Source: an uncultured Hormoscilla sp. (GTDB lineage Bacteria > Cyanobacteriota > Cyanobacteriia > Cyanobacteriales > Desertifilaceae). Taken from it: a stretch of DNA of 64,000 bases. Positions 8,215 to 55,066 of the stretch are shown in pieces. The first letter of the stretch is position 1. Each line of letters opens with the position of its first letter. The stretch is from NCBI GenBank assembly GCA_963921275.4, contig OZ001293.3, positions 1,632,001 to 1,696,000 of the forward strand, written 5' to 3'. The notes below the pieces were generated by a model. The model saw only the letters and a list, made by a program, of their open reading frames with translations. It was not told the origin of the DNA and searched no databases. The position numbers and the translations under genes are program-made.

Positions 8215-9360
8215 CTAGACGTTAACTACTACCTGTTCTAGAGCATCCTTGACCCGTTGGTTGCGAATTTCTCCTCCATGGGTGACGCAAGTCCCGCTAA
8301 TGATATCATCGGCAAAATCCAGCTTTAATTCCCCCTCTTTAATCAGGGTTTGCAACAGCGTGGAAATGTTCTTGGCATACATCTGAGAAGCATGGACTGG
8401 CATGGAGGAAGGCAAATTAATCGGACCGATGATCGTAATGCCATTACGCACCACATCCTTGCCAGCTTCCGTCAGGGCGCAGTTACCACCTTGTTCGGCT
8501 GCCAAGTCAACAATTACTGCACCAGGTTTCATCTTCGCGACCGTTTCTTCCGTAACCAGCAGCGGCGCTTTCTTGCCAGGAACCTGGGCAGTGGTAATCA
8601 CTACATCGGCGGCGGCCACAGTATCAGTCACTAATTTTTGAGTGCGTTTCTTGGACTCCTCGGAAATTTCCTTAGCGTAGCCACCTGCGGCTACTGTATC
8701 TTCCTCTAATTTCACCTCTACGAACTTGGCACCGAGGCTTTGCACTTCTTCTTTTACTGCTGGGCGGATGTCAAAAGCTTCTACCACCGCACCCAAGCGT
8801 CGCGCAGTGGCGATCGCCTGCAAACCTGCCACTCCAGCACCCATCACAAACACTTTCGCCGGGCGGATAGTACCAGCTGCCGTTGTCAACATGGGGAAGA
8901 ACTTAGGCAAAGCCGCTGCGGCCAGCAGTACTGCTTTATACCCAGCCACACCCGCCTGAGAGGACAAAGCATCCATACTCTGGGCCCGACTGGTACGAGG
9001 TATCATTTCCATACTGAAAGCCGTCACCCGACGTTCTGCCAGCTTTCCTATCAATTCTGGCGAACCCAGGGGATTGAGGAAGCTAATCAAGACTCCTTCG
9101 GCCCGTAGCTGGTTAATTTCGGACTCTTTGGGCGTCCCCACCTTCAGCAGCACATCTGCTTCCCCCCAGAGATATCCGATATCTTCGATTATCTTGGCAC
9201 CCGCAGCTTCATAGGCGCTGTTCGGGAAGAATGACTGTTCCCCTGCCCCCGACTCTACCCATATTTCTAAGCCCTGCTTTGTCAACCGGGAGACGATATC
9301 GGGAATCAAAGCCACGCGGCGTTCGCCGAATTCTACTTCTTTGGCAACTGCTATTTTCAT
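8215..9360 (-). CDS. pntA: NAD(P) transhydrogenase alpha subunit, part 1
   Basis: Motifs RAQSMDALSS, GAGVAGLQAIATA and GGYAKE. Confidence 0.97.
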   Translation of the reverse strand: MKIAVAKEVEFGERRVALIPDIVSRLTKQGLEIWVESGAGEQSFFPNSAYEAAGAKIIEDIGYLWGEADVLLKVGTPKESEINQLRAEGVLISFLNPLGSPELIGKLAERRVTAFSMEMIPRTSRAQSMDALSSQAGVAGYKAVLLAAAALPKFFPMLTTAAGTIRPAKVFVMGAGVAGLQAIATARRLGAVVEAFDIRPAVKEEVQSLGAKFVEVKLEEDTVAAGGYAKEISEESKKRTQKLVTDTVAAADVVITTAQVPGKKAPLLVTEETVAKMKPGAVIVDLAAEQGGNCALTEAGKDVVRNGITIIGPINLPSSMPVHASQMYAKNISTLLQTLIKEGELKLDFADDIISGTCVTHGGEIRNQRVKDALEQVVVNV

Positions 9361-12239: not shown

Positions 12240-13037
12240 GTGATTAAGACAAAAACTATGCACTTAACTTGGTTAGACAGCAACTCCTGGCTGATAGAAA
12301 TAGGAGATAAACGCATACTCCTCGACCCCTGGTTAGTGGGAGACTTAGTCTTTGGCAACCTCACCTGGTTATTCAAAGGTTACCGACATCAGACCCGCGC
12401 CATTCCCGAAAACATTGATTTGATTCTCTTATCTCAGGGATTGGAAGACCACACCCATACCCCCACTCTCAAGCTGCTGGACAAGAATATTCCTGTGGTT
12501 GCTTCTCCTAATGCTGCTAAAGTAGTGCAAAAATTGGGATATAATCTGATTATATCCCTCGCTCACGGAGAAACATTCACTTATAATCAGACTGTGGAAA
12601 TCAAAGCTGTGCCCGGTTCACTCGTTGGTGTAAATATGGTGGAAAATGGCTATATACTCAAGGAAAGAGACCGGGGCTTGACGATCTATTATGAACCTCA
12701 CGGTTCTCATGATCCCAAACTGAAGTCCGCTGCGCCAATAGATGTAGTGATGACTCCGATAGTTGACGTAGCACTGCCCCTGGTGGGACCAATAATTAAG
12801 GGAACGTCGAGTGCCCTAGAACTGGCAAAATGGGTACAACCCCAAGTGATGCTCCCCACTGCTGCTGGCGGGGATGTAGTTTTTGAGGGATTGCTGAATT
12901 CTCTGTTACGTGCTAAAGGAAGTATTGAGGAATTTCGCGAGCAGCTGAAGGCAAATGGTCTGGATACCAGGGCGATCGCACCAGAACCAGGTGATCGCAT
13001 TGAACTAAAATTAGATCTGGTTCGTAGTAAGGACTAA
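12240..13037 (+). CDS. MBL-fold metallo-hydrolase
   Basis: Motifs ILLDPWL, LSQGLEDHTH and YYEPHG. Confidence 0.85.
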   Translation: MIKTKTMHLTWLDSNSWLIEIGDKRILLDPWLVGDLVFGNLTWLFKGYRHQTRAIPENIDLILLSQGLEDHTHTPTLKLLDKNIPVVASPNAAKVVQKLGYNLIISLAHGETFTYNQTVEIKAVPGSLVGVNMVENGYILKERDRGLTIYYEPHGSHDPKLKSAAPIDVVMTPIVDVALPLVGPIIKGTSSALELAKWVQPQVMLPTAAGGDVVFEGLLNSLLRAKGSIEEFREQLKANGLDTRAIAPEPGDRIELKLDLVRSKD

Positions 13038-13229
13038 AGTCCTTCAGGTTCGTAGTAAGGACTAAAGTCCTTACCAGCGTGAACCGGCTCCGGACATGGG
13101 TGGCTAGTAGGTGAAGTTGGGCAAGAGGAGGGAGATGGAACAGCAACCCTAGGGGAAGGGAAACAAATACGGTGCTGCTGTGTCAGTAGTAAGGAATAAT
13201 AGGATAAAGACAACCTGAGTACAAGTACC

Positions 13230-14180
13230 ATGAAAGCTGAACCCATTATGTTGTCTGTGATGTCTGCCTGGTTGCTCGCTGCTCCCCAGGTAATCAGCGC
13301 CCACCCGCCCACCATGCTAGCCCAATTCGGTGGGGTCGAAGAGCAGACGAGCATAGATGTCTATCAAAAGGCTAGCCCGGGTGTGGTGACAATTAAAGCT
13401 GGTAGGAGTTCTGGGTCTGGAAGTATTATCGCTGCTGAAGGGCTGGTTTTAACCAACGAACATGTGGTCAGAGACTCTCGCAGTGGTCGAGTTTCGGTGA
13501 AAACTGCTAACGGGAGGGCCTACACGGGTCAGGTAATTGCCACAGACAAAAAGAACGATCTGGCCCTGGTGCGACTGAATGCCAATCAGCGTTTACCGAT
13601 CATTTCTCTGGCCAATGCTAATAGCATTCGCGTGGGTCAGCAGGTTTATGCGATCGGGAGTCCCTTTGGACTAGAGGGAACCTTGACTACCGGAATTCTC
13701 AGCCGCATAGATGAGAAAGATGGAGATTTGCAAACGGATGCGGCCTTGAACCAAGGGAACTCCGGAGGACCGCTGCTGAATTCCCGGGGTGAACTGATTG
13801 GGGTGAACAAATCGATTATTAGCTCCAGCCGCGAGGGAGGTAATATTGGGATTGGGTTTGCTACCAGTGTGCGCGTAGCCCGAGATTTTATTGCCCGCAA
13901 CGCTAGTATCGATATTAATCCAGATCGACTTTATGAATCTGCAGGCGATCGCCCTCGCCTGGGGGTGACTGTAAATCAGAGAATGATGGTGCTGCAGGTA
14001 GATCGGGGATCGCCAGCAGAGAGGGCGGGACTGATGGACGGCGACAGGCTGGTAGGAATTAACGGCCAGAGGGTGAGAAATATAGATGATGTCAAGAGTT
14101 TTCTCGATCGCCGTCCCGGGTCCATTGTGTTAATATACATCCGTAATGGTAGTCGCGCTCGGACTCAGGTCAATTTTTAA
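13230..14180 (+). CDS. Trypsin-like S1C serine protease with PDZ domain
   Basis: Triad motifs LTNEHV, DLAL and NQGNSGGPL; C-terminal GSPAERAGL PDZ signature. Confidence 0.92.
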   Translation: MKAEPIMLSVMSAWLLAAPQVISAHPPTMLAQFGGVEEQTSIDVYQKASPGVVTIKAGRSSGSGSIIAAEGLVLTNEHVVRDSRSGRVSVKTANGRAYTGQVIATDKKNDLALVRLNANQRLPIISLANANSIRVGQQVYAIGSPFGLEGTLTTGILSRIDEKDGDLQTDAALNQGNSGGPLLNSRGELIGVNKSIISSSREGGNIGIGFATSVRVARDFIARNASIDINPDRLYESAGDRPRLGVTVNQRMMVLQVDRGSPAERAGLMDGDRLVGINGQRVRNIDDVKSFLDRRPGSIVLIYIRNGSRARTQVNF

Positions 14181-14188
14181 GTAAAACT

Positions 14189-15352
14189 ATGGGCATCGCC
14201 AAGGCAATTGCTGACTGGTTAGAAGGTCGTTGGGTGACTCCCGCCTATGCGGGTTGGCTGCTAGCAGGACTGACCCTCTGTTTCTTGGCAGCAGCAGCTA
14301 ACACAATGGTAGGCTGGCTCTACGTGCTGAGTGGGATCGCGATAGCTCTGTTGGCAATTGCGGCGATATTGCCTCCCCGATCGCTCGTCGGCATTCAGGT
14401 CAAGAGAAGTCCCATCCCCCCGGTGAGTACGGGCGATCGCCTGACGATCTCCATCGCGATTGAAAATCAGACTCTGCAACCGAAAACTCTGCTGGAAGTT
14501 CGCGACATTCTGCCCTTTGTCCTGGGGGAACCAGCAGAAGAGGCGATCGACCTAATTCCTCCCCAAGGGGTCTTCAAGTGGGTTTACTACTATCAGACCC
14601 AAAAACGGGGGATTTACCGCTGGCATCGGCTAGATTTGAGAACAGCAACCCTTCTAGGGTTGTTTTGGTGTCGGCGATCGCGGGATGCTGAAGCCAGGGC
14701 AATTGTATATCCTCAGGTATTACTCCTGAGCAATTGCCCAATTATCGATCGCATGGGCGAAAAAGATGCCCTCAAATTTAGGAGCGATCGGCGAGGTTTC
14801 CAAAACGCCAGCGAAGGACTAACACGTGCCTTACGACCTTACCGGGTCGGGGATCCCTTTCGTTTAATCCATTGGCGTACCAGTGCTCGTCACGGGGAAC
14901 TGTTAGTGCGAGAATTAGAAGTAATGACGGGCGGTCAAGAAGTAATCATCTGCTTGGATACAGCTTTTACCTGGAATAGCGATGATTTTGAACAAGCAGT
15001 AATAGCTGCTGCATCTCTATACTTTTATGCTTCGCGGCGTCAGATGAACGCGAGACTCTGGACAGCAGCAACAGGTTTACTGCAAGGATATCGGGTAGTG
15101 TTAGAAGCTTTGGCAGCAACTAATTTTAATGAAGAAGTGAAAACTGATAGTTACTTACCCGATCAGCCTGCAGTATGGTTGACACAAAATCCTGATAGTT
15201 TAAATGGGTTGCCCATAGGGAGTCGCTGGGTATTGTGGAGACCAGATGACTCAGAACCTACCGAGACAAACTTGGTGAATAATGATTATCTCGGTTTGAC
15301 GATCTATCGAGAAGAAGAACTAGCAACTCAGCTGCAAAAGCGGCTATGGTAA
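14189..15352 (+). CDS. DUF58 domain protein
   Basis: Motif LRPYRVGDPFRLIHWRTSARHGELLVRE; N-terminal TM segments. Confidence 0.88.
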   Translation: MGIAKAIADWLEGRWVTPAYAGWLLAGLTLCFLAAAANTMVGWLYVLSGIAIALLAIAAILPPRSLVGIQVKRSPIPPVSTGDRLTISIAIENQTLQPKTLLEVRDILPFVLGEPAEEAIDLIPPQGVFKWVYYYQTQKRGIYRWHRLDLRTATLLGLFWCRRSRDAEARAIVYPQVLLLSNCPIIDRMGEKDALKFRSDRRGFQNASEGLTRALRPYRVGDPFRLIHWRTSARHGELLVRELEVMTGGQEVIICLDTAFTWNSDDFEQAVIAAASLYFYASRRQMNARLWTAATGLLQGYRVVLEALAATNFNEEVKTDSYLPDQPAVWLTQNPDSLNGLPIGSRWVLWRPDDSEPTETNLVNNDYLGLTIYREEELATQLQKRLW

Positions 15353-15545
15353 TGGAACAAAATCGCGCTTTTGAACAAACTAATCTCCTCTTGATTCTTC
15401 CCGGATAAAAGCCCAAGCAATTATGCCCAGCAGCAACAGGCCAATAATAATAGGAATGCCGATGCTAATCACTGTCACTTACTCCTGTTAACTCGATTAA
15501 CTCGTTAACTCGTTGCCTGGTTAGACTCGTTCTATCACATTTCCA

Positions 15546-15917
15546 CTACTTGCTAGCTCTCCCAACTAAGTAACTGAGAAGACTGCTGACCGTTGCAGTA
15601 AGAGCAGCAATAGCAAACCTCACTTTACTTTCTGAAGATGTATCTAGCTGAAGAATTGTGAAAGCATAAATGTCAATACGCAAAACGATCAAAACTGCCA
15701 GCAAAAAGATAATAATATCCTTGCTTTGGTTTAAGATGAAGATAAACCACTCTTTCCTAAGCTCCTGTCCTGCCTTAATCTCTCGCAGCTTGCGATCAAA
15801 ATCTGCTTCCTCTTGAGACTGAGCAGCTAATTGAATAGAAAGATCATCTTTGCTACTCTGTTTGTCTCGGACAACTTGGTCGAAAAAAAATTTAACTTTG
15901 TCGGGAATGTTTTGCAC
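15546..15917 (-). CDS. Hypothetical membrane protein
   Basis: 123-aa ORF with two C-terminal hydrophobic segments; abuts the upstream ORF. Confidence 0.55.
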   Translation of the reverse strand: MQNIPDKVKFFFDQVVRDKQSSKDDLSIQLAAQSQEEADFDRKLREIKAGQELRKEWFIFILNQSKDIIIFLLAVLIVLRIDIYAFTILQLDTSSESKVRFAIAALTATVSSLLSYLVGRASK

Positions 15918-31981: not shown

Positions 31982-32062
31982 TGATATTTTCCTACTATAG
32001 CACTCTGGGGTAAAATTGCAACAATTTTTGGTCAGGATTGACGAGAATTTAAGATTATTAAA

Positions 32063-34711
32063 CTAAGCTAGGGGGTCGCCCCCCCGACTCGTCTTCAGAA
32101 CCGGACGTGAGACTTTCACCTCATCCGGCTCCTCAGTGACGCCACCCTTGTCACGGGTACGGCTGTGACTGCCGTCGCTGGCAGTTTTTATGTAGTGACA
32201 GTGCTTGTGTAATAACTGTAGGTTGTCATACCGGTCTTTACCTCCTAATGAAAGGGGCTTGATGTGGTCAACTTCCCACTTGTCACTGTCCAAGAACGTT
32301 AGTTCGCAGTGTTGGCATTTTCCCTTTTGCCTCTTTAGTAGCGTTGCTACTCTCTTACTTAGCTCGGGGTTTTTGCCTAGTCTCGTACTCCAATATGTAA
32401 GGTTCCCGTCATATGGGCTTGCTGTTCCTTTCACTTTTATGTGTCTGACTATCTCAGTTTCAGAGTGTTTGTACAGCGTTATCTCTCCCTCTCCTGCCTT
32501 GTACCGGAATCGCCATTTACCACCCTGGTCTACAGACCAGTACTTATAGGCTATCCAGTGACTTGACTTATTGGGATGTCTCTTTTTGGCCCATTGCCAT
32601 AGGATGTTCCATAGGTAGGTATCCATGTCTGTGTAAGTTTCCTTACTCACCACGGTCCTGTAGTAGTTGGACCATCCCCGTATTATCGGGCCTAGCCTGC
32701 TTATCAGGGTCGCTTGTGGTGCTGCTTTATGGCTGGCTACCACCTCTGCTAGCCGTTCTTTATGCTTCCCTATGGACTTTTTACTGGGTTTGATTAGGGT
32801 TTTGAATCCTAGGGGTGTTCCGTTAGTTGATTTACCGGTTCTGTATTCACCCACCTCATATTGCCTTATGTTGAACCCCAGGAAATCAAATCCCGGTTTT
32901 TCTCCCTTTAGCGTATGAGTTATTTTTGTCTTTTCGGCTTTCAACTCTAGCCCCATTCCTTTTAGCCACTCTGCCACCACCATCTGCGCTTTGTCTATCA
33001 TCTCCTTGCTCTCATGCATTACAACAAAGTCATCGGCATATCTGACTATCGTCAGTATCTACTTTTCCTTTTGTGTCCTGACGAGTTTCTTCACTGCCTC
33101 CTCTAACCCGTGGAGGGCTATGTTGGCTAGTAATGGTGATATGACTCCCCCTTGGGGAGTACCCGCCTCGGTTGCATGCCAGTTCCCTTTGTCCATTACC
33201 CCGGCTTTTAGCCATGCCCGTATTTGCTTACGGATTGGTGATATGGTATTCAGTTTTTCCAGTAACGCTCTGTGGTCTATCTTGTCGAAGCATTTCGCGA
33301 TGTCAGCATCCAATACCCACTTGGGTTTATATCTGATGCTTAAGAATATCGCTTCGATTGCATCGTGGCATCCCCTTCCCGGTCTGAACCCGTAGGAGTT
33401 CCCTTCCATATACGCTTCCCACTCGGGTTCGAGCGCAATCTTAAGGAGTCCGTGCGATTCGTTCTAGCCTAACGTGGTCAAACACGGAACGCTAGCCCGG
33501 TTTCATTAGCCGGGAACTCTGACCGCATGGGGGTTAAATTCCCCTCCCCCCAGGTACGGGGGTGACACCGGTCCTCGGTGCTACGAAGCGACATCATCGT
33601 GGTGCTAAGCGAGGACTCAAATGTAGGATAACTGGCAGCCTAAGCCGGTGACGCCGCTAGGAAAGATATCCAAGGTTAGAGCAGGCAAACATGTGCAAGC
33701 CTCGTTATAAGGAACCAGCGAAATAAGGCTATATGCGCTGGCCTAAAAAGGAAATGGTAGCTAGTATTAGTTTTAGACTCTGGCTAATATAGTACTCAAA
33801 TAGCTCCCGGGGTATAGTGTGGACCTAAAGGTATCGCGAAATGTTGTTAGGGAACGAAGTAACCTCTCGTGTGCTGTCCATCAGGACAAGTTAGATGTTA
33901 AGCGCAAGCCACGGGGGGAGGGATGGCCCAAGAAGCGAATGCCCGGGGTAATTCCTGGGATAACATCTACAGTAATGTAGATGATGCTGGGTAGCCAGCG
34001 CTGACGTGGGTCGGTGATACTAGGAAGCTGCTGGAATGAGTAATCCTAAAAAGCCACGGAACTAATCCGAAACGCAAGTGGAGGATAAGGTATGGATAAC
34101 TGGTAAAACTGACTTGAAAATGGTGATACTAACGGTTATCAGAACAACCACTCGCTAAACCAGGAAAGGGAAGAAAAGACAGGCGGCAAGGGCTAACGGA
34201 AGTAATTCCTATTAAGTCTACCTATGAAAAGGGCCTAGTACCCAGTAGCCGGATGCGGTGAAAATCGCAAGTCCGGTTCCGAAAGGGAGGGTCGGGAAGC
34301 GATTCCCGGCTCGACCCCATCCCTGTGTCGCGCGGTCATACATCGTTGGTATTCCTAAAGGACGCTTTTCCTCTCTCCCTGGCTTCGGTATCCATACACG
34401 CCGTGTAGGTTTGGCCTTGTTTGAGATTTCAATCTGTCCTACCAGTTCTAGGCGTTGCTTCGGGGTCAGTGCTTTCACACCGTCCACTCCAGCCGTCTTT
34501 TTTCCCTGGTTATCTTGTGTTACCTGTCGTACCGCTAGACTTTTGGCAGCCCGGGATTTTACCAGTAACCTTTGGAGTCTGCGAACTGGTCGCTTATTAC
34601 GCCTTCCATTGCCGCTCTGTAAATTCGCTTTTGCAACTTAAAGACTACCCGCTCTAGCTTTCGCCAGGGGGTATCCTTCCATTCATTCATCGATTTTGAC
34701 ATCGTGCTCAT
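32063..34711 (-). pseudogene. ltrA: Group II intron RT/maturase/HNH, inactivated three times
   Basis: Motifs RPLGIP, PQGGVISPLLAN, YADD and HNH (DHIKP...NLQLLH). Carries a 2-nt insertion near 34598, the nested intron from 33452, and TAG at 33059-33061. Confidence 0.92.
33452..34322 (+). mobile_element. ORF-less group II intron inserted antisense in the RT gene
   Basis: 5' GTGCG at 33452; domain V AGCCGGATGCGGTGAAAATCGCAAGTCCGGTTC at about 34247-34279; domain VI ending GACCCCAT at 34320. Removing 33452-34322 restores DRATQGLLKIALEPEWE. Confidence 0.92.
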
Positions 34712-36337
34712 GACGTATGCATTGCTACTTACAACTTCACAATTGACGTTACCGTGAGGGCGTCAGCATATCCTATCCATTACAGATAGGCGTTAGCTTC
34801 TCCACGAAATCTCTCCCAGATACAACCTGCCTAATGAAAGCAGATGTTGCGCCTGTGGTGGCTACTCAACCTATCGACCGGCGGTTGAGAGTATGTACCT
34901 GGTTTACTTCGTTCCTCTAGATGATTGGTCGTAGTTTTAGGTGGGCTCTCTATGCCGGGTTTTATTGTCAGTGCTTATTGGTCGGAGTCAAAACCGCCAA
35001 TGACCGATATCCTTTCCCTTTTGGACCAGCGTTTCAGCCTTTTCGCTGGTTCCAAGTGACGACACTTATGAGCCTTCACTTTCGTTCATCATGACTACTT
35101 GCTTGACGATGACCGGCTTAGGCTGCTAGTCAGGGCGCCTTTCCTACCCGCTTCACAGATTGATGCCATCGCTACTGTGGGGTAAGTGCTGTCACGAGAG
35201 CACCTGGAGGGGTGGGCTTTCACCACCATCATCTAAAAGTTGTCAGGGCTAATGGAACCCTGCTAATGGTCCCCCACCGGTGTCCCTCTGTTGGTTCACC
35301 GGTAGTTTACACTAAACGAATCGCACTCGACTATCTGTGGCCATAAGGTGGGCATGGCCCACCCGACAACAGTTATTTCAGCTGAAAGCTAGTACCCCGG
35401 TAGCATCCTTGAAAAGAAGTCAGTTTGGTACTAGTGTACTGCTCCAGTCTCTGCACTAGCAAAGGCTTGTATTCCAAGGTATTGAGCCATTTATAGGAGA
35501 AATGACCTGGACGATACCTAATCCTTTTATGAATATACTTGTCAACGGGAACTCCGTCAACCCCTGAGATGCTTTGCTGGTGGTATCCATTGAGCATGAT
35601 GTACTCGACTTCCACTCCTGGGGACAGGGTGACATTCCAATGTACCGGTTCATAGGAGGACAGAGCCAGAATAATAGGTTTCTCTTGACGCTGCACCTTC
35701 ACCTCCACCAGTCCCGTGGGATGATATCCAGCACTATGGTCCGATCGCGCCTCATATACACTAATTACATGTAGCTCTTTAGAACCCATAGTTCGGGCAA
35801 AATAGGCCGAAAAATCTCCTGAACCACCGTCACCGCAGGCGACTATGGGAGTTTCTGTTGCAGCTTGCTGCTGTTGCAGGATCGGCTTTAACCAATACCA
35901 ACCACCGACACCCACAGCAGCGATCAAAGCCGCACCCACCCCGATCGGGATAATATTTTTCAGGTTGCGGAAACCCTCAGAGTTTGTGAAGCGCTCCAGG
36001 TTATTCTTGAGCGCGTCACCTGTTTCTTGGAATAAATTATTGTTGCCATCCAGAGAGGCTAACAAGGCCAAACTTTCCGGCGCTTCCAGTAGACTTTGCA
36101 CATCCGGACCCAGACCTACATAAAGATTTCTGCTGTGCCGGTCTAAAAGGAGCCAGTATTGGTCTGCTGCGCCCAGGTTATAGTCTTGCACTGAGGGACT
36201 GACTTGGGGGTGTTGCAGGAAAACCTGCCAGGCCACACCGTTACCGGTGCCGATATTTTCCCCATCATTGTACATGACTTGGTTGAGTTGGGGTTCCCAG
36301 TGCCAAGCTACCCAACGACTATTAGCTTGATAGCCTA

Positions 36338-38428: not shown

Positions 38429-40826
38429 ATTAAACTAAGCCAGTCCGTCACCGGACCGACTCGTCTTCAAAACCGGACATGAGACTTTCGCCTCATCCTG
38501 CTCCTCGGTCACGCCACCCTTGTCATGGGTACGGCTACTGCCATCGCTGGCAGTCTTTTTGTCGTGGCAGTGTTTGTGTAGCAACTGTAGGTTGTCATAC
38601 CGGTCCTTACCTCCTAGTGAAAGGGGCATGATATGGTCAACTTCCCATTTGTCACTATCCATAAACGTTAGTCCGCACTGTTGGCATTTTCCCTTTTGCT
38701 GCTTGAGTAGCGTTGCTACCCTTTTACTCAGTTCGGGGCTTTTGCCTAATCTTGTGCTCCAATATGTGAGGTTCCCGTCGTATGGGCTTGCGGTCCCTTT
38801 CACTTTTACGTGTCTGATTATCTCAGTTTCGGAGTGTTTGCGTATCTTCATATCACCCTCTTTTGTCTTGCTTCGGAATCGCCATTTAGCATCCTGGTTT
38901 ACAGACCAGTATTTATAGGTTATCCAGTTACTTAACTTGTTAGGGTGCCTCCTTTTGGCCCATTGCCATAGGATGTTTTATAGGTAGTTGTCCATATCGC
39001 TGTAAGTTTCCTTGCTTACCACTGTCCTAAAGTAGTTTGACCATCCCCTTATTATCGGGTTTAGCCTGCTTATTAGGGCCGCTTGTGGTGCTGTTATATG
39101 GCTAGTTACCATTTCTGATAACCGTTCTTTATGCTTCCCTATGGACTTATTACTGGGTTTGATTAGGGTTTTGAATCCTAGGGGTGTTCCGTTTGTTGAT
39201 TTGCCGGTTCTGTATTTTCCCTCTTTATATTGCCTTATATTGAATCCTAGGAAGTCGAATCCCGGGTTTTCTCCATTTAGCCTGTGGGCTATCTTTGTCT
39301 TTTCGGCCTTCAACTCAAGCCCTATTCTTCTTAGCCACTCTGCCACCACTGTTTGCGCTCTGTCTATCATCTCCCTGTCTTCATGCATGATCACAAAGTC
39401 GTCTGCGTATCTGACTACCGTCAGCTTTTGCTTTTCCCTTTGTGTCTTTGCTAATTCCATTACTGCTTCCTCTAACCCCTGTAGGGCTATATTGGCTAGC
39501 AGTGGGGATATGACACCCCCTTGTGGCGTTCCTGCCTCAGTTGTGTGCCATATCTTCTTGTCAATCACCCCGGCTTTTAACCATGCCCGTACTTGTTTAC
39601 GGATTGGTGACGTAGTATTTAATTTTTCGACTAGCGCTTTGTGGTCTATCCTGTCGAAACATTTCGCAATATCTGCATCTAATACCCATTTGGGTTTCTG
39701 TTTAATGCTGCTGAATATTGCCGCAATTGCATCGTGGCATCCCCGACCCGGTCTGAATCCGTATGAGTTCCCCTCCATATATGCTTCCCATTCGGGTTCG
39801 AGCGCAATCTTGAGGAGCCCTTGATTCGCGCGGTCGTGCATCGTGGGTATTCCTAAAGGACGTTTTTCTTCTCTCCCTGGCTTAGGAATCCATACACGAC
39901 GTGTAGGCTTAGCCTTGTTTGAGATTTCAATCTGTCCTACCAGTTCTCGGCGTTGCTTTGGGGTTAGTGATTTCACACCATCCACACCGGCTGTCTTCTT
40001 TCCCTGGTTATCTTGTGTAACCCGTCGTACCGCTAGACATTTGGCAGCCCGGGAGCTTACCAGTAACCTTTGGAGCCTGCGAACTTTTTGCTTATTGCCT
40101 TCTTGTGCCGCTCTGTAAATTCGTTTTTGCAACTTAAAGACTACCCGTTCCAGCCGAGGCCAGGGGATATCCTTCCATTCATTCATCGATTTTGACATCG
40201 TGCTCATGACGTATGTATTGCTACTTACAACTTTACAATTGACGTTACCGTGAGGGCGTCAGCATATCCCATCCATTACAGAAAGGCGTTAGCTTCTCCG
40301 CGAAATCTTTCCCAGATATAACCTGCCGAATGTAAGCAGATGTTGCGCCTTTGGTGGCTGCTCAACCTATCGACCGGTGGTTGAGAGTATGTACCTGGTT
40401 TACTTCGTTCCTCTAGATGATTGGTCGTAGTTTTAGGTGGATTCCTTATGCCGGGTTTATTGTCGGTGCTTATTGGTCGGAAAAGGAACCGCCAATGACC
40501 ATTATCCTTTCCCTTTTGGGCCAGCGTGTTTAGCCTTATTACGCTGGTTTGTCGTAACGACACTGTAAATCTTTGCTTTCGCTCACCGTGACTACTTGCA
40601 CGCTGCGCGAAAAATCGGCGATGACCGGTTTAGGCTACCAGCCAGGGCGCCTTTCGTACCCGCTTCACGGATTGATGCCATCGCTACCGTGGGGTAAGTG
40701 CTGTCACTCCTGCACCTGGAGGGGTGGGCTTTCACCACCATCATCTAAAAGTTATCAAGGCTAATGGAGCCTTGCCAGTGGTCCCCCTTCGGTTATCACC
40801 GGTGGTTTACACTGAACGAGTCGCAC
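38429..40826 (-). mobile_element. Group II intron B, sibling of intron A
   Basis: 5' GTGCG at 40826; domains V/VI at about 38435-38505; 3' end CTTAGTTTAAT at 38429; co-linear with intron A. Confidence 0.92.
38435..40207 (-). pseudogene. ltrA: Group II intron RT/maturase/HNH with one in-frame stop
   Basis: Complete RT motifs including YADD. TAA at 38978-38980 where intron A has TGG; the downstream HNH ORF is in the same frame. Confidence 0.92.
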
Positions 40827-45951: not shown

Positions 45952-47073
45952 ATGCTTTCATTAACAAAGACAAGTTCGCGACAGCGAGAAATACTAGAGG
46001 TACTGTTCCGGAATGGCTGGGACTACATCGAAGGACTGATGAAAGGTAGTAAAGGTGGCGAACCCAGACTGCCAACACCTGCCGTCCTACGAAATATTCT
46101 GGTAGAATTGGGTCCAGTATATGTCAAGCTGGGGCAACTGCTGAGTACCCTGAGGTATCTCCCGGGAGCGCTAAAAGCACTACCCGGGAGATACCTCCCT
46201 GACATTCTGCCCTCAGCCTACATAGAAGCATTATCCTCGCTACAAGCGAAAGTGCCGCCAGTAGCATGGTCCCAGATAGAAGTAATGTTGCGGCAAGAGT
46301 TACCCGGACCCCTGCACGAGACATTTTCTGCCATTAATAATCAACCAGTTGCCGTAGGTTCGATCGGTCAAGTGCATCGGGCAACATTAGCAGATGGTCG
46401 GGAAGTGGCCCTGAAAATTCAGCTTCAATGTCTCCTGTCGGAGTCCGGTCAGTCAGTAAATTTGGATCCCTTGGAAAACGACTACGATCGGATGCTGCGC
46501 AAGTATTATAATCTCAGCCTGTCGGAGATATATTTCAGTGAAGTATTCTACGAGTTCTTGGAAATTTCGCGCAAGAATAAAATTAAATTGCCAGGGAATA
46601 TGGGTTTGTACGCTAAAGCCCTAGCCAATTTAGAAGGAGTAGCCCGTAGTTTCAATTCGGAGGTAAATTTACTGGATGAAATAAAGCCATTGATGACAGA
46701 TTTATTTCGGCGTCAGCTGCTGGGAGATAAGCCGATCGAAACCCTACCCTATTGCAAACGGCGTTGGACCTGAAGAGTTTATCCTTGCAATCTCCGCGCA
46801 TGGTAGAGTTACTCCTAGACCGAATAACTTCGGAAACCCTGAAGTGGAATTTAACCATCAAAGATCTAGATCCGTTACGTCGGAGTATAGATGATTCGGC
46901 AAACAGGCTCTCCTTTAGTATTGTAGTAGGTTCCTTGAGGGGCAGCAATTATTTCTAGTAATGCCCAGACGCCGCAAATGTCGGTGGTGAGTGACGTGTT
47001 GTTTGCAGCGGCTAGTATTTTGGGGTTGTGGTTGGCAATCAGTATTCTGCGATCGGGGAGATTACGGTCTTAA
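45952..47073 (+). pseudogene. AarF/ABC1/UbiB kinase with a core deletion, a hairpin insertion and frameshifts
   Basis: Motifs ELGPVYVKLGQLLST and GSIGQVHRA...VALKIQ, followed by a jump to the C-terminal region. Frameshifts near 46745 and 46935. Confidence 0.85.
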
Positions 47074-47151: not shown

Positions 47152-48675
47152 ATGACTAGCAACAAGTCAAAATTATCGGTCAGAGTTCAAGGGGATATAC
47201 GCGAACGGTTAAGAACATTCCAAGCAGAGCATCAGCTCAAGTCCTTGTCCGGTGCGATCGGAGTAATTCTGGAAAATTACTTTGAAACGATCTCATCGGT
47301 CCCATCCGAAGTAGAACAGGCAGATGTTCTGCCAGCCAGCGACAGCATGACCAATATTCTACTGAAGCGGATAGAAAAGCTGGAAACAAGATTAGTCGAA
47401 ACAGAAAAACACAGCAACGAGCTGGAAGTAAGATTAGTCGAAACAGAAAAACACAGCAACGAGCTGGAAGTAAGATTAGCAGTGGCGGAAGCAGAACTGG
47501 GAAACTATCGTCGGACTGCCAGCACACAAGGACTTAAGTCTCTGAAACCGATACAAGCATCAACAAAACCACACAACTCTATATATGGGCGAGGCGAAGC
47601 TGCCTCTATATATCCAGGATGGGAACTTTCTGCCAATGTCTCCTACGTATTCAGTAGAATTCAGACGCTGAACACGGATGAAGCCAGGGCGGCCTTTGCG
47701 GATAAGTGGATAGGTTTGTGCGCCCAAAGCATTGATACAGCTTGGGTTGTATGTTACCAACTCCTGAGCATCATCAAGGAAAAACAGATGTATAAAATTC
47801 CGCAATGGATGGAAGGGAACAAGACCTACGATTCATTCAGCGACTACTTCGAACAGCGATTCAAGCAGCCCTTCGAGAAGTGGTTGCAACTGGAGCGTAC
47901 TTACAAGTTTGTGGTCGAAACTTGTCCGGAACTGCTAGAGGGACTATTACATCTAGAGTCCAGCCCTGATTTTTCCAGAACGGTGGAAGCTCAAAACGAC
48001 AGTGGTAATGGGGTGATTCCCAGTAAGACAAAGCGCAAGACTCGAAGCCCGCGCAGCCAGAAGCTTCCACAGCCAGAGGCACAGCCAGAAGCACAGCCAG
48101 AACAGCCCCTTGATAGCGTAGAAACCGCTTCAATGTCTCCTGGGAGCGCTAAAAGCACTACCCAGGAGACATTGCCGACACCTGAAGCCGCAAATCAGGT
48201 TGAGAACGACAGTGGTCATGGGGTGATTCCCAGTAAGACAAAGCGCAAGACTCGAAGCCGGCCCAGCCAGAAGCTTCCACAGCCAGAGGCACAGCCAGAA
48301 GCACAGCCAGAACAGCCCCTTGATAGCGTAGAAACCGCTTCAATGTCTCCTGGGAGCGCTAAAAGCACTACCCAGGAGACATTGCCGACACCTGAAGCCG
48401 CAAATCAGGTTGAGAAAGACTCTGATGTACAAGTCACGCCCGATTTTTCCGGAACGGTAGCCCAGAAGCTAGAAACTCAAGAGTCTAGCACTTCCGATCC
48501 CCTATCTGAAATAATGACGACCAGAGAAATATCGGAATTACTAAACTGGCACCGTGATAAATTAGAAGGCCGCAAAAAACGTGGGAATTTGCCGATACAA
48601 GAGGGTGGTTACGTCATCGACTGCATTGGCAAGGAAGGGCGGAAGCTGATTTGGACTGTTAAGCGCCTGAAATAA
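47152..48675 (+). CDS. Hypothetical DNA-binding protein (RHH-like N-terminus, coiled coil, C-terminal HTH-like) with 42-bp and 210-bp internal duplications
   Basis: 507-aa ORF with a GGAGG RBS. Repeats at about 47388-47480 and 47995-48415. Confidence 0.75.
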   Translation: MTSNKSKLSVRVQGDIRERLRTFQAEHQLKSLSGAIGVILENYFETISSVPSEVEQADVLPASDSMTNILLKRIEKLETRLVETEKHSNELEVRLVETEKHSNELEVRLAVAEAELGNYRRTASTQGLKSLKPIQASTKPHNSIYGRGEAASIYPGWELSANVSYVFSRIQTLNTDEARAAFADKWIGLCAQSIDTAWVVCYQLLSIIKEKQMYKIPQWMEGNKTYDSFSDYFEQRFKQPFEKWLQLERTYKFVVETCPELLEGLLHLESSPDFSRTVEAQNDSGNGVIPSKTKRKTRSPRSQKLPQPEAQPEAQPEQPLDSVETASMSPGSAKSTTQETLPTPEAANQVENDSGHGVIPSKTKRKTRSRPSQKLPQPEAQPEAQPEQPLDSVETASMSPGSAKSTTQETLPTPEAANQVEKDSDVQVTPDFSGTVAQKLETQESSTSDPLSEIMTTREISELLNWHRDKLEGRKKRGNLPIQEGGYVIDCIGKEGRKLIWTVKRLK

Positions 48676-48802
48676 TGGTTACAAGAGTTCGCATACTTCT
48701 GGGGGCTTTGGGAACCAGGAGTACTACCAATGATCGCCAAGCTCCCATCACCCTTTTGGGTAGAGTTCCGTGCAAATAGGCGAGAGTCAATGTAGCATCC
48801 AG

Positions 48803-51527
48803 ATGTCACTAGCTCGCACCAAGCTGAAGCTCAGGCAAATACGCAGCGAGCTAATCGAGAAAACCTTGAGGAAATTACCAGGAGTTGTACCAGTGAAAAA
48901 CTTAGGAAAGGAAAAAGTGGGAGTGTCCAAGCCAACCTGGATGTCACAACAACAGTGGCGAGATTTACTGGCATCGTATGACGATCAGCCGCAATGCCAG
49001 TACACAGACAAAACTGCCTCTGAAGCCAAGCTGGTTGTTGACCATATCGTGCCTCGATCGCAAGGAGGCAAGAACGAAGTCAGAAACTACCAGTTCCTGT
49101 GCGAAGATCAAAATCTTCAGAAAGGGGTAAAGCCGGACAGGTATTGGTCGCAGGAGTTATACTACGACAAAGATCACGATCCAAACAACTTCCGCTATGC
49201 TCAGTATTTCCTGGCTTATCTGAAAATTTTGACTCAGGCAGAACACTTCCAACGTCCCTGGTCGCAAATCAACCGAGTAGTCTATCTGCTGGCGTGGATC
49301 ACTGGAGCAGGTAAGACAATGGCTATTCATGCAATTTGCTTTGCGCTCAACCAAATTTTGAAAAGGGATAAAGGAGTTGCTTACCCCAGAGTCGATCGGA
49401 TTTTAGTCTTGGTGAAAGAGCAAGCTCTACGGGACCAACTAGCGAATGAACTGGAAAAGGATGTAGTTGACTATGGAATCTGCAAGATTCCCCCAAAGGT
49501 GGGAGTAGTAGAAAGCAGTGATAAGTTGGAAAATGATTGGTGGCTTGAACAATATGATATAGTTGTTGCCTGTTTACAACAGGATGGGAACGTAAGAATG
49601 GTATTCCTCGCGATAATATTGAGCATATTTTAGGCAAGTTTGCCGTTGTCTTCTTCGATGAACCCCATTACGCTGTAGAGCAGGTGGCTCAGTTAGCAGA
49701 GCAAGGGACCAGAAGCCTTTGTTTTGGGCTGACCAGCACGCCAATCAATGCCAAAGGTGAGGTTTTAGCGTCTTATGTACTGTTTTCGCTCTGTGGTTTG
49801 CAGGAAGCTTATGAGTACCAGCAAAACCTTAAATACCTGTCTTCATCGGAAGCATCAATTATCGAATCAAAGATGGTTGACTATGTGGATGAGGTTGATG
49901 CACGAGAGCATTTTTGTGGCCAGCGTATTGAAATAGAGGGAAGTCCGGACACACCTGACTATAACACGCAGCTCGAACCAGCAAAAACTGTAGCTGAGAA
50001 AATTGTGTCTTATGTGGTTGAAGCTGACCGCTTGTGTAAAAAGGTGTTTTCTGGAGAAATCACTCCTAAACCTGCATCGCACAGAAATGCCAGTGAAGTT
50101 ATACCTGATTTAATTTACCCCATGCACGCCATGATTGCTGTGAGGAGCAAGCATGACGCGGAGGTCTTAGCAAAGCATCTAAATGATAATGTTTTTGAAA
50201 GCAACCCTATGAATATCCACCAGAACAAGGCTTTAGAGTCAAGGTTGTTTTCAGTGCTGGAGTGGATGAGGACGGCAAACCAGTCCCAGGGTACAAACTG
50301 GATACAGAGCATCCCTGGCTAAAGTGCTGGAAAACCAAGAACTTCAAAATGACTGGGCAGGGTTGGGAGCTTCCGAAAGACTGCGCTCGCTTTCTCATTG
50401 TTGTTGGCATGGCCCGCGAGGGAATCAATAACCCGTTCTGTGGAGTAATCGGATTAGGCAATAGAACCGAATCAATCATTGAGGTAATTCAGCGGTTGAT
50501 TGGTCGGCAAATCCGGTCATACCAAGAAACACTCAGAGTTCCTCCAGCACAACTGGACAGTATCAAGATCTGGATGCACAGAGCTTGGGATTATCCCAAG
50601 GCTGGAGATGCACCGGACTATGCTACTACTAAATGTATAAAGGATAGTCTCCACTTCTACGAACACATGGATGAGTGGTTGACTGGTATAACTACATTGG
50701 AAGACTTAATAGAAAAAGGTAAGGAACTAGATCCGGAAACTGAAGTAACAGATCGAGGAACCTTAACAATCGAGGATAAGTTAGACATAGCATATCATGT
50801 AGGCGAGCATCAACTCAAGGATGAAGAAGTTCCTGAAGATGACATTATTGATAATTTGTGCGGTCGCAATAATAAGAAAAGAGAACTTGGCAAGCAGTGG
50901 ATTAACCTGGTTCAGAACGATCCGGATCTGGCTAAGTCTGAACTTAACCAAAAGGTAGTGCTTCGCAAGCTGCATGTGATTGAGTACGAAAGACCGAAAA
51001 TAAATCCTAGTATAACGGATTTGCGTTGGTTCTATGAAGTGCATAATCCTGGCAGTCTTCCACTGCTTGAGACTCTGGAAAACTCGGCAACCGATAGCAC
51101 AACAAAGGAAGCACTGCGTTCTAATATGAATTTTACCTACGAGCAATACATGGCGAAGTTCCATTCATTTGCTGATTTGCCAAAAGTTACGGACTTTGAT
51201 AAGATTCGCACAAAGTTAGTGAGTCAACTGTACAGTCAGCTACGTTTCAACAGTCCTGGTAGTTTCATTGAGGGAGAAGTTAAGGAGATAAAAACTGAGG
51301 CTTGGAAGCAGATTGGATATGCTGTAAAAACTGTACTGGGGTTAAAGAAAGCAGAAAAAGGTAGCGAACACGATACGCCACAATACCACGCTGTCCTGTC
51401 AGATCCCGGTATTGTCAGAAATATTCTAGGGTATGCACGTCAGAAACTATTGGAACAGTTTGCTCGACCTCCTATAGCTAGAAGCTTGCAAATCTCTGAT
51501 GCTGCTCCAGATCCGGAAGTTGATTAA
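48803..51527 (+). pseudogene. HNH endonuclease-SF2 (ResIII-like) helicase fusion split by two frameshifts
   Basis: HNH: CQY..DHIVPRSQGG..NYQFLC...N. Helicase motifs: TGAGKT, DEPH, TSTP, MAREGIN and QRLIGRQIR. Frame changes near 49583 and 50208. Confidence 0.8.
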
Positions 51528-51723
51528 AGAAGAATAAATACCCTGAGTCCTACCACGGGGGTTAGGGTTTGGTATCCCGTTTGCTCGCGATCGCCTGATC
51601 GGATGGTGTTTCCCTTCCGCTACCACGGGGAGTGGTAGCATAGTGTAAGGGGCGATCGCCACCCCGCCCGAACCCGTGCATGATCCGGCTACTCCGCAAC
51701 ATTGCCTGCCCTATAACTGCTCT

Positions 51724-51755
51724 AACTCCGAACTCCGAACTCCGAACTCCGAACT
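51724..51755. repeat. Heptamer tandem repeat (AACTCCG)n
   Basis: About 4.5 copies; STRR-like. Confidence 0.8.
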
Positions 51756-52830: not shown

Positions 52831-53478
52831 TCACTTAGACCACCCCAAATTTTCGATCGCCTGTTCAATGTCAACTTCTAAGGCCCTAAAAGCAGACAAA
52901 GCCCGCAGGCGTGTAAAATCATTAATCAGTTGAGCTACTCGATGAACTTTTTCGTTGACATTGAATTTCTTCAGCCGTTTGGGTCCCAGTTCGCTGGCTT
53001 GGCGCAAAACTGTGTATAGAATGTTTTTGGGATCGGATAGTTCTTCAACTTTAGCGAGGTCTGGCAATTTTAATGCCTGTCGTCCGCCCGGATTACCAGA
53101 TGCTCTTCGGATTGCTTTTTCGTCAAATAATAACCAAGCTTCTTGCATCCGTACCGGAATAACACAAACTGCGGGGACGGACAGTGATTTTTCATCTGAC
53201 TCTATCGCTTTTCTAATTTCATCCACACGCTTTTGTCGCGGTTCTTTTTCGGCATCTCTATGCACGAATAATAGATCGCAAGGGTAAAGTTCAAGGCTCT
53301 TTTTGATGCGATCGGGCAACTTTTTGGGCGGTTTAGATAACCTTCCTAAATATGCCCATTCAGACTGGATAGCACAGTTAACAACAATATGTTCTCGCAA
53401 TAACCATGTCAGAACATATTGTAACGCTTTGTCTGAACTACCATCAGACAGTAAAGTGTAGCGAAGTTCTTCTTTCAT
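52831..53478 (-). CDS. DUF4276-like / TOPRIM-like protein
   Basis: Motifs LLSDGSSD, FVHRDAE, PVRMQEAWLL and DPK. Confidence 0.7.
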   Translation of the reverse strand: MKEELRYTLLSDGSSDKALQYVLTWLLREHIVVNCAIQSEWAYLGRLSKPPKKLPDRIKKSLELYPCDLLFVHRDAEKEPRQKRVDEIRKAIESDEKSLSVPAVCVIPVRMQEAWLLFDEKAIRRASGNPGGRQALKLPDLAKVEELSDPKNILYTVLRQASELGPKRLKKFNVNEKVHRVAQLINDFTRLRALSAFRALEVDIEQAIENLGWSK

Positions 53479-53487
53479 AGCAAGTCA

Positions 53488-55023
53488 CTAGGAAAACCGG
53501 GAATCAACGGTTGCAGGTCTTTTCTGTCCCGCAACTCGGCGTTTCTTGGACGATGTATCCGGCGATCGCTGGTAGCTTGCTGCCTCTCCATTTTCATCAG
53601 ATTCTGATTCTTGCGGCATAACTGGATTCAGATAAGCAAGTAGTTTACCTTTAGAAACAACACTAACTCTTTCAGGGGCTTTAACTCGCCAAGTATCAGG
53701 CAAACAGCTAAAACACACCCGCTTAAACCGCTGGTTTGAACTAACCGTTTCCTTCAACTCAGCCACCAAAAGGCTATCATCCCTAACCTGACTGACAACT
53801 CCTGGAGAGTGAGTGTTGACGATTACTTGACGAAGGGGATTGTCAAAACCAATCTCTTCTTCCACATCAGTTGCAATGTCTTGAAGTAGTTCGATCATCT
53901 TCGGGATGCGTTCGGGATGAATGCCGTTTTCCGGTTCTTCTAAGCACAAAACACCCTGTGCTTCTGAATCGAGTTCCAGCACTGCTAATGCCAGAAATCG
54001 CATGGTGCCATCCGATAATGCCCGCGCCGGATGGGATGTCCCGTCTCGATCGGTGACCATTAAGGTGAGGAGTTCGCGGCGATCGTCGCGGTCAATCCAT
54101 ACTTCATCTACATCCTCAATCAATTCTGCCAGACGATTAGCAACTTGAGCATAAACTCGTGCTTCTGCTGCCTCTACATTCTCTGATTGCCCATTAATTT
54201 GGTGATTTTTCGTATGACGTGCTAAATGATAGAGTGTTGAAGCTAGATGAGATCCGTCTGTCCCTAATTTTGTAGGAGCAATAAATTCGCTACTGTGACG
54301 CAAAGATGAAGGTTCGAGCTGAAGTAGGCGCCAGGATTGCATTTCCCGCCGCGCTAACAGCGCCGTAGGACTTTCGGCAGCATTCGTTACAGAAAGTACA
54401 GTCCGGGGCAGATTGACTGCTGACCTAGATAGAGCTCTGCCACTGCTACCACCGTCTTGATGGAGCTTAATGACTCTCTCTGTCCCCTCACCTCCAGTGG
54501 AAATAAAAGGGGCTCCTCTCCGTTCACCGTTTACTACGGACTTACGCCATGTTTTAGCTTTGTGAGGAAACAGTAAGTGCTTGGCAGCTTCACCGATGTT
54601 GATGTGAACTAATTCTTCTTTCAAGAGTTCCAGCGTTCCTAGGGACCGGAGACTATCATCTGCTTTGTAGGCTAGGATAACAGAGTATCTGAGAAAGGTA
54701 ATAGTAGCTTTTGCCTTTTGTCCGAGATCGTCTACTCCCTCATAAGGCACGATCATTTCTGCTTCAAAGGACATTTGCTCAGCATATCGATCGCCGACGC
54801 GGAGGAACAAGCTTCGGACATCACCGGTTTTACCGCTTTCATCCCGCACGGATAAAGCAGCTTCGATGAGAGACCGATCGGCCAAGGCACTCAAAAACCT
54901 AATAGCATCAAACAGATTAGATTTTCCCACCCCATTTGCCCCCGCTACACAGGTGAATGGTCCAAAGCGGACATCAACATCGACGAGGTTCTTAAAACCT
55001 GAAACTTTTAACCTGGTTAGCAT
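53488..55023 (-). CDS. AAA_21 / ABC-type ATPase
   Basis: Walker A GANGVGKS, signature LSDGT, Walker B LEEPENGIHP and H-loop NTHSP. Confidence 0.9.
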   Translation of the reverse strand: MLTRLKVSGFKNLVDVDVRFGPFTCVAGANGVGKSNLFDAIRFLSALADRSLIEAALSVRDESGKTGDVRSLFLRVGDRYAEQMSFEAEMIVPYEGVDDLGQKAKATITFLRYSVILAYKADDSLRSLGTLELLKEELVHINIGEAAKHLLFPHKAKTWRKSVVNGERRGAPFISTGGEGTERVIKLHQDGGSSGRALSRSAVNLPRTVLSVTNAAESPTALLARREMQSWRLLQLEPSSLRHSSEFIAPTKLGTDGSHLASTLYHLARHTKNHQINGQSENVEAAEARVYAQVANRLAELIEDVDEVWIDRDDRRELLTLMVTDRDGTSHPARALSDGTMRFLALAVLELDSEAQGVLCLEEPENGIHPERIPKMIELLQDIATDVEEEIGFDNPLRQVIVNTHSPGVVSQVRDDSLLVAELKETVSSNQRFKRVCFSCLPDTWRVKAPERVSVVSKGKLLAYLNPVMPQESESDENGEAASYQRSPDTSSKKRRVAGQKRPATVDSRFS

Positions 55024-55066
55024 AATCTTACTCTTGCGATTACATTTTTTCGCCATTCCCCATTAA

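Follow-up and report, generated by a model that had tools for sequence, protein, structure and literature searches.

Hachiman HamAB, DdmDE, Druantia III and Gabija each combine a helicase or helicase-nuclease with one partner and are found on mobile elements, and SauUSI, an ATP-dependent Type IV enzyme, carries a phospholipase D (PLD) nuclease and an SRA reader domain. To our knowledge, the ATP-dependent restriction motors described so far all rely on a methyl mark, which is either written or read. Here we analyse a gene pair lying in a 64,000-nucleotide stretch of an uncultured Hormoscilla sp. (assembly GCA_963921275.4, contig OZ001293.3, positions 1,632,001 to 1,696,000; hereafter the window), in which a gene for a 507-aa protein, here called the partner, precedes one encoding an HNH nuclease joined to a superfamily 2 (SF2) helicase. 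The pair is a real and apparently undescribed two-gene module, of which the window copy is only a relic. No description of it was found in the literature covered, to which supplements and most subscription papers did not belong, and bioRxiv candidate lists could hold the family. Because a restriction-like motor and nuclease travels with a constant small partner and no methyltransferase, the module raises the question of how such an enzyme spares self DNA.

Positions 48893-51527 of the window are a single gene encoding an HNH domain and an SF2 motor of the ResIII type, cut in three by two 1-bp deletions, as the initial annotation had proposed from three consecutive open reading frames (ORFs). 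Three-frame translation gives one reading path across the three frames (Table 1), Pfam detects HNH_5 (E 2e-8), HNH (5e-7) and ResIII (1e-5) in the first piece, and an alignment with Hormoscilla sp. GM7CHS1pb (L009), a same-genus genome whose helicase is intact and whose two flanks are both syntenic with those of the window, shows one base gone after 49583 and one at 50204-50207. The remaining gaps in this alignment are one base at 48850, 5' of the start, and a compensating pair at 48968-48971. The start is likely the GTG at 48893, placed behind an AGGAG, which replaces the 48770 of the ORF caller. Intact cyanobacterial homologues have 875-955 aa, and the closest one (P0001, 882 aa) is 93% identical over the C-terminal piece.

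At the breaks the window was compared with four of the 18 sequencing runs listed (X1, X3, X5 and X6). Contigs of X1 (48387-51753) and X3 (49390-51753) bridge both breaks with zero differences from the window, ruling out assembly error; they come from two samples of one study, one of which the window itself may derive from, and rare variants are lost in contigs. The X5 allele has the extra base at both sites, and the X6 allele has it at the second, the first not being bridged. Programmed frameshifting was also ruled out, given that neither site has a slippery run and that relatives carry the extra base. Since contigs of two samples share both breaks and the same-genus genome has the helicase intact, the gene is a real pseudogene, and the suspected frameshifts are genuine. 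No second helicase copy was found in the genome of the window (G000), where only other HNH domains matched, and no methyltransferase was found among the flanking ORFs scanned in the window, in agreement with what had been noted from the sequence. Against L009, dN/dS (the nonsynonymous to synonymous rate ratio) of the three helicase pieces is 0.97, 0.14 and 0.57 (small counts), compared with 0.16 and 0.21 for two core genes and 0.34-1.24 for four other neighbours, so relaxed selection extends beyond the helicase gene.

A profile built from 14 full-length homologues, which had been found with the C-terminal piece, retrieved 193 representatives at E<=1e-30 among 1.84 billion sequences, the best 150 of which have mostly 800-900 aa. 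Alignment of 114 rows (members of 760-1000 aa plus eight earlier proteins) showed that both active sites are conserved throughout the family, whose architecture is HNH, SF2 motor with two RecA-like domains, and helical tail. Walker A G140/K141, motif II D256/E257 and motif VI Q534 and R539 are present in 114 of 114 rows, and the HNH residues are nearly as constant (His 106/114, Asn65 106/114, Asn74 107/114); motif III is also conserved and the fold is that of an SF2 protein. Solely HNH and ResIII/DEAD/SWI2_SNF2 families were found by Pfam in 44 helicase members (PF01844 in 41, PF04851 in 39, PF18766 in 11). The long C-terminus that had been left unrecognised indeed has no family match, neither in Pfam nor usably in an Atlas search (about aa 600-882), and the modelled structure adds that the roughly 280 residues following motif VI in the third piece are probably all-helical. 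The model of P0001 (pLDDT 76, pTM 0.55, 14-sequence alignment) has as its top Foldseek matches in the PDB HsdR of EcoR124I (E 2e-10), LlaBIII and SauUSI, and matches at the sequence level include an HsdR fragment (3h1t), SauUSI (7clg) and, weakly, the HNH domain of ZRANB3.

The suggestion that helicase and upstream gene form a module was borne out by the homologues. The set comprised 23 distinct helicase loci, of which L012 and L023 were set aside because they run into the end of a contig; in 20 of the 21 assessable ones a partner adjoins the helicase, in both gene orders and down to about 30% helicase identity; duplicate viral records were counted once, and two of these loci (L017 and G548) are near-identical and thus non-independent. 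The partner is upstream in eight loci (the window, L008, L009, L011, L017, G252, G548 and G661, the last deduced from two contigs that share a 53-nt end at the break) and downstream in twelve (L006, L018-L022 and six viral elements), and the sole locus without an adjacent partner, L048, has a truncated helicase. Helicase stop and partner start overlap in L018-L022, with a 5-nt gap in L006, and in the six viral elements the best match to the partner profile is the gene directly 3' of the helicase (E 7e-8 to 8e-16). Both genes are intact in L017, L006, L020 and L021.

The family is patchy: among 401 genomes of the order, the helicase profile matches 12, nine of them beyond the HNH domain, so this is not a housekeeping helicase; the partner core matches 12 (10 strongly), and both genes occur in eight. 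Two nearly complete genomes (G600, 98%; G570, 99%) have an intact partner and no family helicase, and a helicase without partner was seen in this sample only where the helicase itself is broken (G455 and G643). Among four other same-genus genomes, one has the helicase and another a partner remnant of about 30 codons. A search of 251 genomes of another phylum gave 0 matches and, having no positive control, is uninformative. In trees, the cyanobacterial members fall into two clades, each with strong support and opposite to the other in gene order, among non-cyanobacterial rows. Decay is frequent, the helicase being broken in the window, L008, L011, L012 and L048, yet dN/dS is 0.13-0.19 for intact cyanobacterial helicases and 0.15-0.16 for the partner core, so selection maintains the pair outside any phage. 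Constant partner, mobility, purifying selection and repeated decay thus characterise the family, and the module had rightly been described as horizontally mobile and decaying in the window. In L012, an internal deletion of about 500 codons (858-1151) fuses the first motor domain directly to the very C-terminal end. A scan of 11 homologue loci with Rfam gave tRNAs, one group I intron and no other RNA, and no repeat array was found in six homologue loci.

The partner had been labelled a ribbon-helix-helix/helix-turn-helix (RHH/HTH) protein. The same layout, an RHH-like start followed by a helical core and then by one or two HTH-like domains at the C-terminus, recurs in fifteen further homologues of this 507-aa protein; Pfam gives no match, and the RHH and HTH labels were read from the alignment pattern. 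The core profile matches the gene directly downstream of helicases of about 30% identity (L006, L018-L022; E 1e-19 to 1e-26), partners in the wider family are helical proteins of about 230-280 aa, and a further partner search gave 65 proteins. Only the central helical core is general, the RHH and C-terminal HTH domains being add-ons of one cyanobacterial clade; the linked gene of the initial annotation stood, and its label described the added parts. RHH domains are also fused to the helicase N-terminus in relatives P0002, P0004, P0006 and P0007. No convincing Pfam, PHROG, PADLOC or PDB family was found for the partner (53 members for Pfam and PADLOC), and in the Atlas it falls with unnamed clusters whose viral share is 59-88%. 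A model of the homologue P0194 is all-helical (pLDDT 85); against the PDB nothing exceeds noise, and the viral list is headed by three uncharacterised Caudovirales proteins. Its weak matches are Spo0J (Z 4.8), KorB (4.2/3.7), ParB (3.9) and Raf1 (5.3/5.1/3.9), with root-mean-square deviations of 3.9-6.8 over 82-100 residues, and the HTH likeness of the modelled core to ParB, KorB and Spo0J may be taken as a lead only; a ParB CTPase domain was not found (all-helical model; no ParB Pfam match in 53 members).

In L009 a group II intron of 2,403 nt (GTGCG...AT) has entered the partner gene exactly at a codon boundary, so splicing could rescue the partner. Copies about 73-75% identical to this intron (L009 6368-8770) lie at 38429-40785 and 32057-35273 of the window. 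The partner coding sequence of the window also contains, in frame, a 14-bp inverted-repeat hairpin (48131-48174 and 48341-48384), which has 80 hits of at least 35 nt and at least 85% identity in the genome.

The initial annotation had expected a defence-island setting, which the loci examined did not show: homologues lie instead in the early operons of tailed phages and, in cyanobacteria, as cargo of type V-K CRISPR-associated transposons (CASTs). Distant pairs are found in early or replication operons of uncultured tailed phages (IMG/VR elements L069, L072, L074, L075, L076 and L083). In these six elements and in metagenomic loci L018 and L023, neighbours include repressors, exonuclease VIII or lambda-type exonuclease, RecT/Erf, single-stranded DNA-binding protein (SSB), resolvases, primase-helicases, initiators and an integrase or terminase, the replication genes varying from phage to phage. 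With P0011 as the query, 50,697 cultured phages gave no full-length match and plasmids likewise gave matches to the HNH domain only, and viral scans with A5 and A4 returned nothing. Two DNA methyltransferase genes lie near the pair in L069 (3-1055 and 9988-10788), and in L083 a queuine tRNA-ribosyltransferase-like gene (8460-9248) stands two genes before the helicase; both may have a link to modified phage DNA.

Three cyanobacterial copies (G137, G643 and G661) are V-K CAST cargo, lying within transposon ends with tns genes, cvkR and cas12k (L048, L006 and L007 with L066). We take the genes called tnsB, tnsC, tniQ and cvkR here to be such from their sequence and gene order; the identity of Cas12k is an NCBIfam match. 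L048 has both transposon ends, tnsB, tnsC, cvkR and a cas12k remnant, downstream of tRNA-Ala(CGC); L006 reads cas12k remnant, cvkR, helicase, partner, ORF, tnsB remnant, end; and G661 has tnsC, tniQ, partner, helicase, cvkR, a cas12k piece and tRNA-Pro. This placement is the cargo position described in PMC9938897, where restriction-modification systems are reported as frequent among V-K cargo, and Tn7-like cargo is said to be enriched in defence genes in PMC8649781. L011 and L012 also lie downstream of the same tRNA-Ala, with no detectable transposon ends. This tRNA-Ala(CGC), next to which a HAD hydrolase gene lies, serves as a common insertion site (L048 5800-11790; L011 15688-15760; L012 1175-1247), occupied by a decayed V-K CAST in G643 and by helicase relics in two Prochloron-type genomes. 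In L011, beside the broken helicase, a TnpB gene lies between ORFs resembling halves of one larger gene (12321-15635).

Table 1. Positions in the window of the helicase and partner features (RHH, ribbon-helix-helix; HTH, helix-turn-helix).
Feature	Position	Strand	Remarks
Partner gene	47152..48675	+	intact ORF, 507 aa: RHH-like aa ~5-47, coiled coil, helical core aa ~145-265, low-complexity linker, C-terminal HTH-like domain
42-nt in-frame tandem duplication in partner	47378..47461	+	missing from X5 and X6 alleles
Partner conserved helical core	47584..47946	+	shared with genes downstream of distant helicase homologues (alignment A9)
210-nt in-frame tandem duplication in partner linker	47995..48414	+	hairpin repeat in each copy; missing from X5 allele
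Decayed RHH domain	48700..48860 (about)	+	several small indels; broken in window and L009; PF01402 in relatives
Helicase piece 1	48893..49583	+	frame 1; GTG start, AGGAG at 48880-84; HNH motif DHIVP at 49040, both Asn intact; Walker A GAGKT at 49304
Frameshift 1	49583..49584	+	1 base fewer than L009 and X5; X1 and X3 same as window
Helicase piece 2	49585..50204	+	frame 2; Walker B DEPH at 49657, motif III TSTP at 49732; second RecA-like domain begins
Frameshift 2	50204..50207	+	1 base fewer than L009, X5 and X6; X1 and X3 same as window
Helicase piece 3	50208..51527	+	frame 3; motif V region MAREGINN at 50409, motif VI QRLIGRQIR at 50490, then predicted ~280-aa all-helical C-terminal region without family match

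The HIP1 repeat GCGATCGC, the absence of which had been put forward as a sign of horizontal acquisition, is indeed missing between 45536 and 51587; this is weak evidence of transfer, as 11.6% of 20,000 random 4,376-bp windows of the chromosome also lack it. The six small contigs C2-C7 of the same genome are all without HIP1, and C3 (31.4 kb) has a GC content of 17.6%; some of them may be foreign to this organism. Promoter and terminator scans gave chance-level results only. On one flank, an ABC1/UbiB kinase gene (45952-47073) is disrupted in the window, and its L009 counterpart is split as well. On the other, 1.3 kb downstream, 52831-55056 on the minus strand encodes an AAA ATPase (136 bits to the MAD3 model, cut-off 420; 43 bits to PtuA) followed by a 215-aa gene without NCBIfam match, a possible second defence-type pair with dN/dS of 0.65 and 1.24 against L009.

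Taken together, the pair may be a mobile two-gene DNA-conflict module, that is, an ATP-driven, restriction-like motor-nuclease controlled by its partner, used against rival DNA and dead in this genome, a reading for which we consider the chances about even. Phage-free chromosomes and CASTs both retain the pair, and CAST cargo is defence-enriched (PMC8649781), which argues for a role in conflict; the defence function is putative. The motor-nuclease would load onto double-stranded DNA, like HsdR, Type ISP enzymes and SauUSI, and translocate with ATP while the HNH domain nicks or cuts. The partner would bind DNA through an HTH-type domain and also the tail of the motor, either loading the motor on its target or keeping it off self DNA; since no methyltransferase or specificity subunit travels with the helicase, control is most likely supplied by the partner. 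Phages might use the pair against competing phage, plasmid or host DNA, and cyanobacteria could have acquired it as defence cargo, one clade adding RHH domains, possibly for autoregulation; overall it looks as if a cassette from phage early operons had been acquired, as cargo of host or transposon, by two cyanobacterial clades whose gene orders are opposite. In the lineage of the window, the RHH domain of the helicase, broken in both genomes compared, would have been lost first and the two helicase deletions would have followed.

A bolder version of this reading, which we hold to be rather unlikely, is that of a methylation-free restriction system of tailed-phage origin recruited by CRISPR-associated transposons, where an HsdR-like motor would be armed with the HNH domain and a small sequence-specific DNA-binding partner would decide between self and non-self, as a protein mark or a loader, with no methyltransferase. 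If true, it would represent a class of ATP-dependent restriction enzyme the target of which could perhaps be changed by swapping the DNA-binding domain of the partner.

Several observations weigh against a conflict module. The structural evidence is the first: whole-chain TM-scores of the P0001 model to HsdR are just 0.25-0.31, and VIA-align ranks FANCM (Z 17.4), RadD (17.0), INO80 (16.7) and the TFIIH helicase chain (16.4) above LlaBIII (15.7) and EcoP15I (15.2), so the fold indicates an SF2 translocase and not restriction. On the side of the partner, the ParB/KorB likeness (Z 3.7-4.8) is within noise for helical proteins, and the viral partner matches are weaker, three of the six resting mainly on a short HTH-like stretch. 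As to context, the genome of the window has no CAST genes, ends or remnants, and no known defence system scored beside the loci, except for the AAA ATPase below cut-off, 2 kb downstream in the window. In phage L068/L069 a methyltransferase of a PHROG family other than HsdM comes right after the partner. Finally, the phage pairs sit amid replication and recombination genes, those in L074 and L076 right after a repressor/cro-like switch, a position that lytic DNA processing fits equally well.

This last setting keeps alive the alternative that the pair is a phage replication or recombination accessory, a motor that remodels forks or junctions and nicks through its HNH domain, like RadD, UvsW or ZRANB3, that the partner would bring to phage DNA, the cyanobacterial copies being passengers or repair helpers; we see this as possible, although somewhat improbable. 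Exonuclease VIII, RecT/Erf, SSB, RuvC/RusA, primase-helicase and initiator genes surround the phage copies, a primosomal-protein gene is directly upstream in L075, and the lead of FANCM and RadD in the VIA list and the largely viral clusters resembling the partner point in the same direction. However, several unrelated replication modules adjoin the pair, which is therefore an exchangeable cassette, and purifying selection acts on it in the chromosomes of cyanobacteria and in CASTs, with no phage genes in the loci examined; the cultured phages searched with P0011 also argue against it, in that none has a full-length match. Tight gene coupling, the RHH domains added in one clade, and the occurrence in the 401-genome sample of partners alone, where no intact helicase alone was found, would suit a toxin-antitoxin-like addiction or abortive infection system, in which the nuclease-motor kills or stalls the cell unless bound by the partner, and so stabilises its element or kills on infection. 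This we judge improbable, as in L009 an intact helicase coexists with an intron-interrupted partner, albeit with possible rescue by splicing, the sample is small, and an 850-aa ATP-driven enzyme would be unusual as a toxin. It is very doubtful that the helicase is a modification-dependent (Type IV, SauUSI-like) or modification-blocked restriction enzyme, with a helical tail that reads DNA modification and a partner that is a mere regulator: the nuclease-motor-tail layout is that of SauUSI (7clg is among the matches), most loci are without a cognate methyltransferase and two of the six phage elements have DNA-modification-type genes near the pair (L069 and L083), but sequence profiles found no SRA, PUA or other reader family (Pfam, 44 members), and Type IV enzymes need no conserved partner, yet here the core of the partner persists whichever of the two genes comes first.

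As had been anticipated, no named system matches the pair: in PADLOC-DB 2.0, 1-3 of 44 helicases gave matches at the level of the HNH domain only (best 6e-7, PtuB, 3/44) and 0 of 53 partners matched, and no NCBIfam family fits either protein. HsdR of the EcoR124I and EcoAI type shares an N-terminal nuclease, an SF2 ResIII-type motor and a helical C-terminal region, and gives the best Foldseek matches. It differs in having a PD-(D/E)XK (HsdR_N) nuclease before the motor where the present family has HNH; in addition, no HsdR N- or C-terminal Pfam family occurs in the 44 members, the conserved partner is unrelated, and the EcoAI R model gives the helicase 14.8 bits against a cut-off of 550. Neither hsdM nor hsdS was found among the flanking ORFs scanned at the loci, other ORFs being read by eye only. 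SauUSI is similar in joining nuclease, SF2 motor and C-terminal domain in one chain without methyltransferase, whereas the family described here has an HNH domain, a helical tail without family match and a partner gene, and no sequence-profile match to PLD or SRA. Type ISP (LlaBIII) and Type III Res (EcoP15I) enzymes also couple an SF2 motor to a nuclease, their VIA-align scores being those of the motor region, but nuclease class and domain order differ, and no fused or adjacent methyltransferase or target-recognition domain accompanies the helicase; a methyltransferase domain is present in 0 of 44 members, and an adjacent methyltransferase only in L068/L069.

Among helicase systems with a single partner, Hachiman HamAB, DdmDE, Druantia III and Gabija are unlike the present pair, in which none of the searches run identified the partner as a nuclease, an Argonaute or an OLD ATPase. 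BpuC is a helicase-HNH fusion of a CRISPR locus, with a C-terminal HNH domain and encoded with cas1, cas2 and cas7 (bioRxiv 10.1101/2025.09.30.679098); it resembles the helicase in uniting both activities in one chain and differs in the opposite domain order, and no cas1, cas2 or cas7 was seen at the loci studied here. RadD and FANCM as top VIA matches for the motor, and ZRANB3 with its HNH domain among the weak sequence matches, show the likeness to DNA-remodelling motors, from which the present family is set apart by being patchy and mobile instead of housekeeping, by its N-terminal HNH domain, and by its occurrence in phage and CAST contexts.

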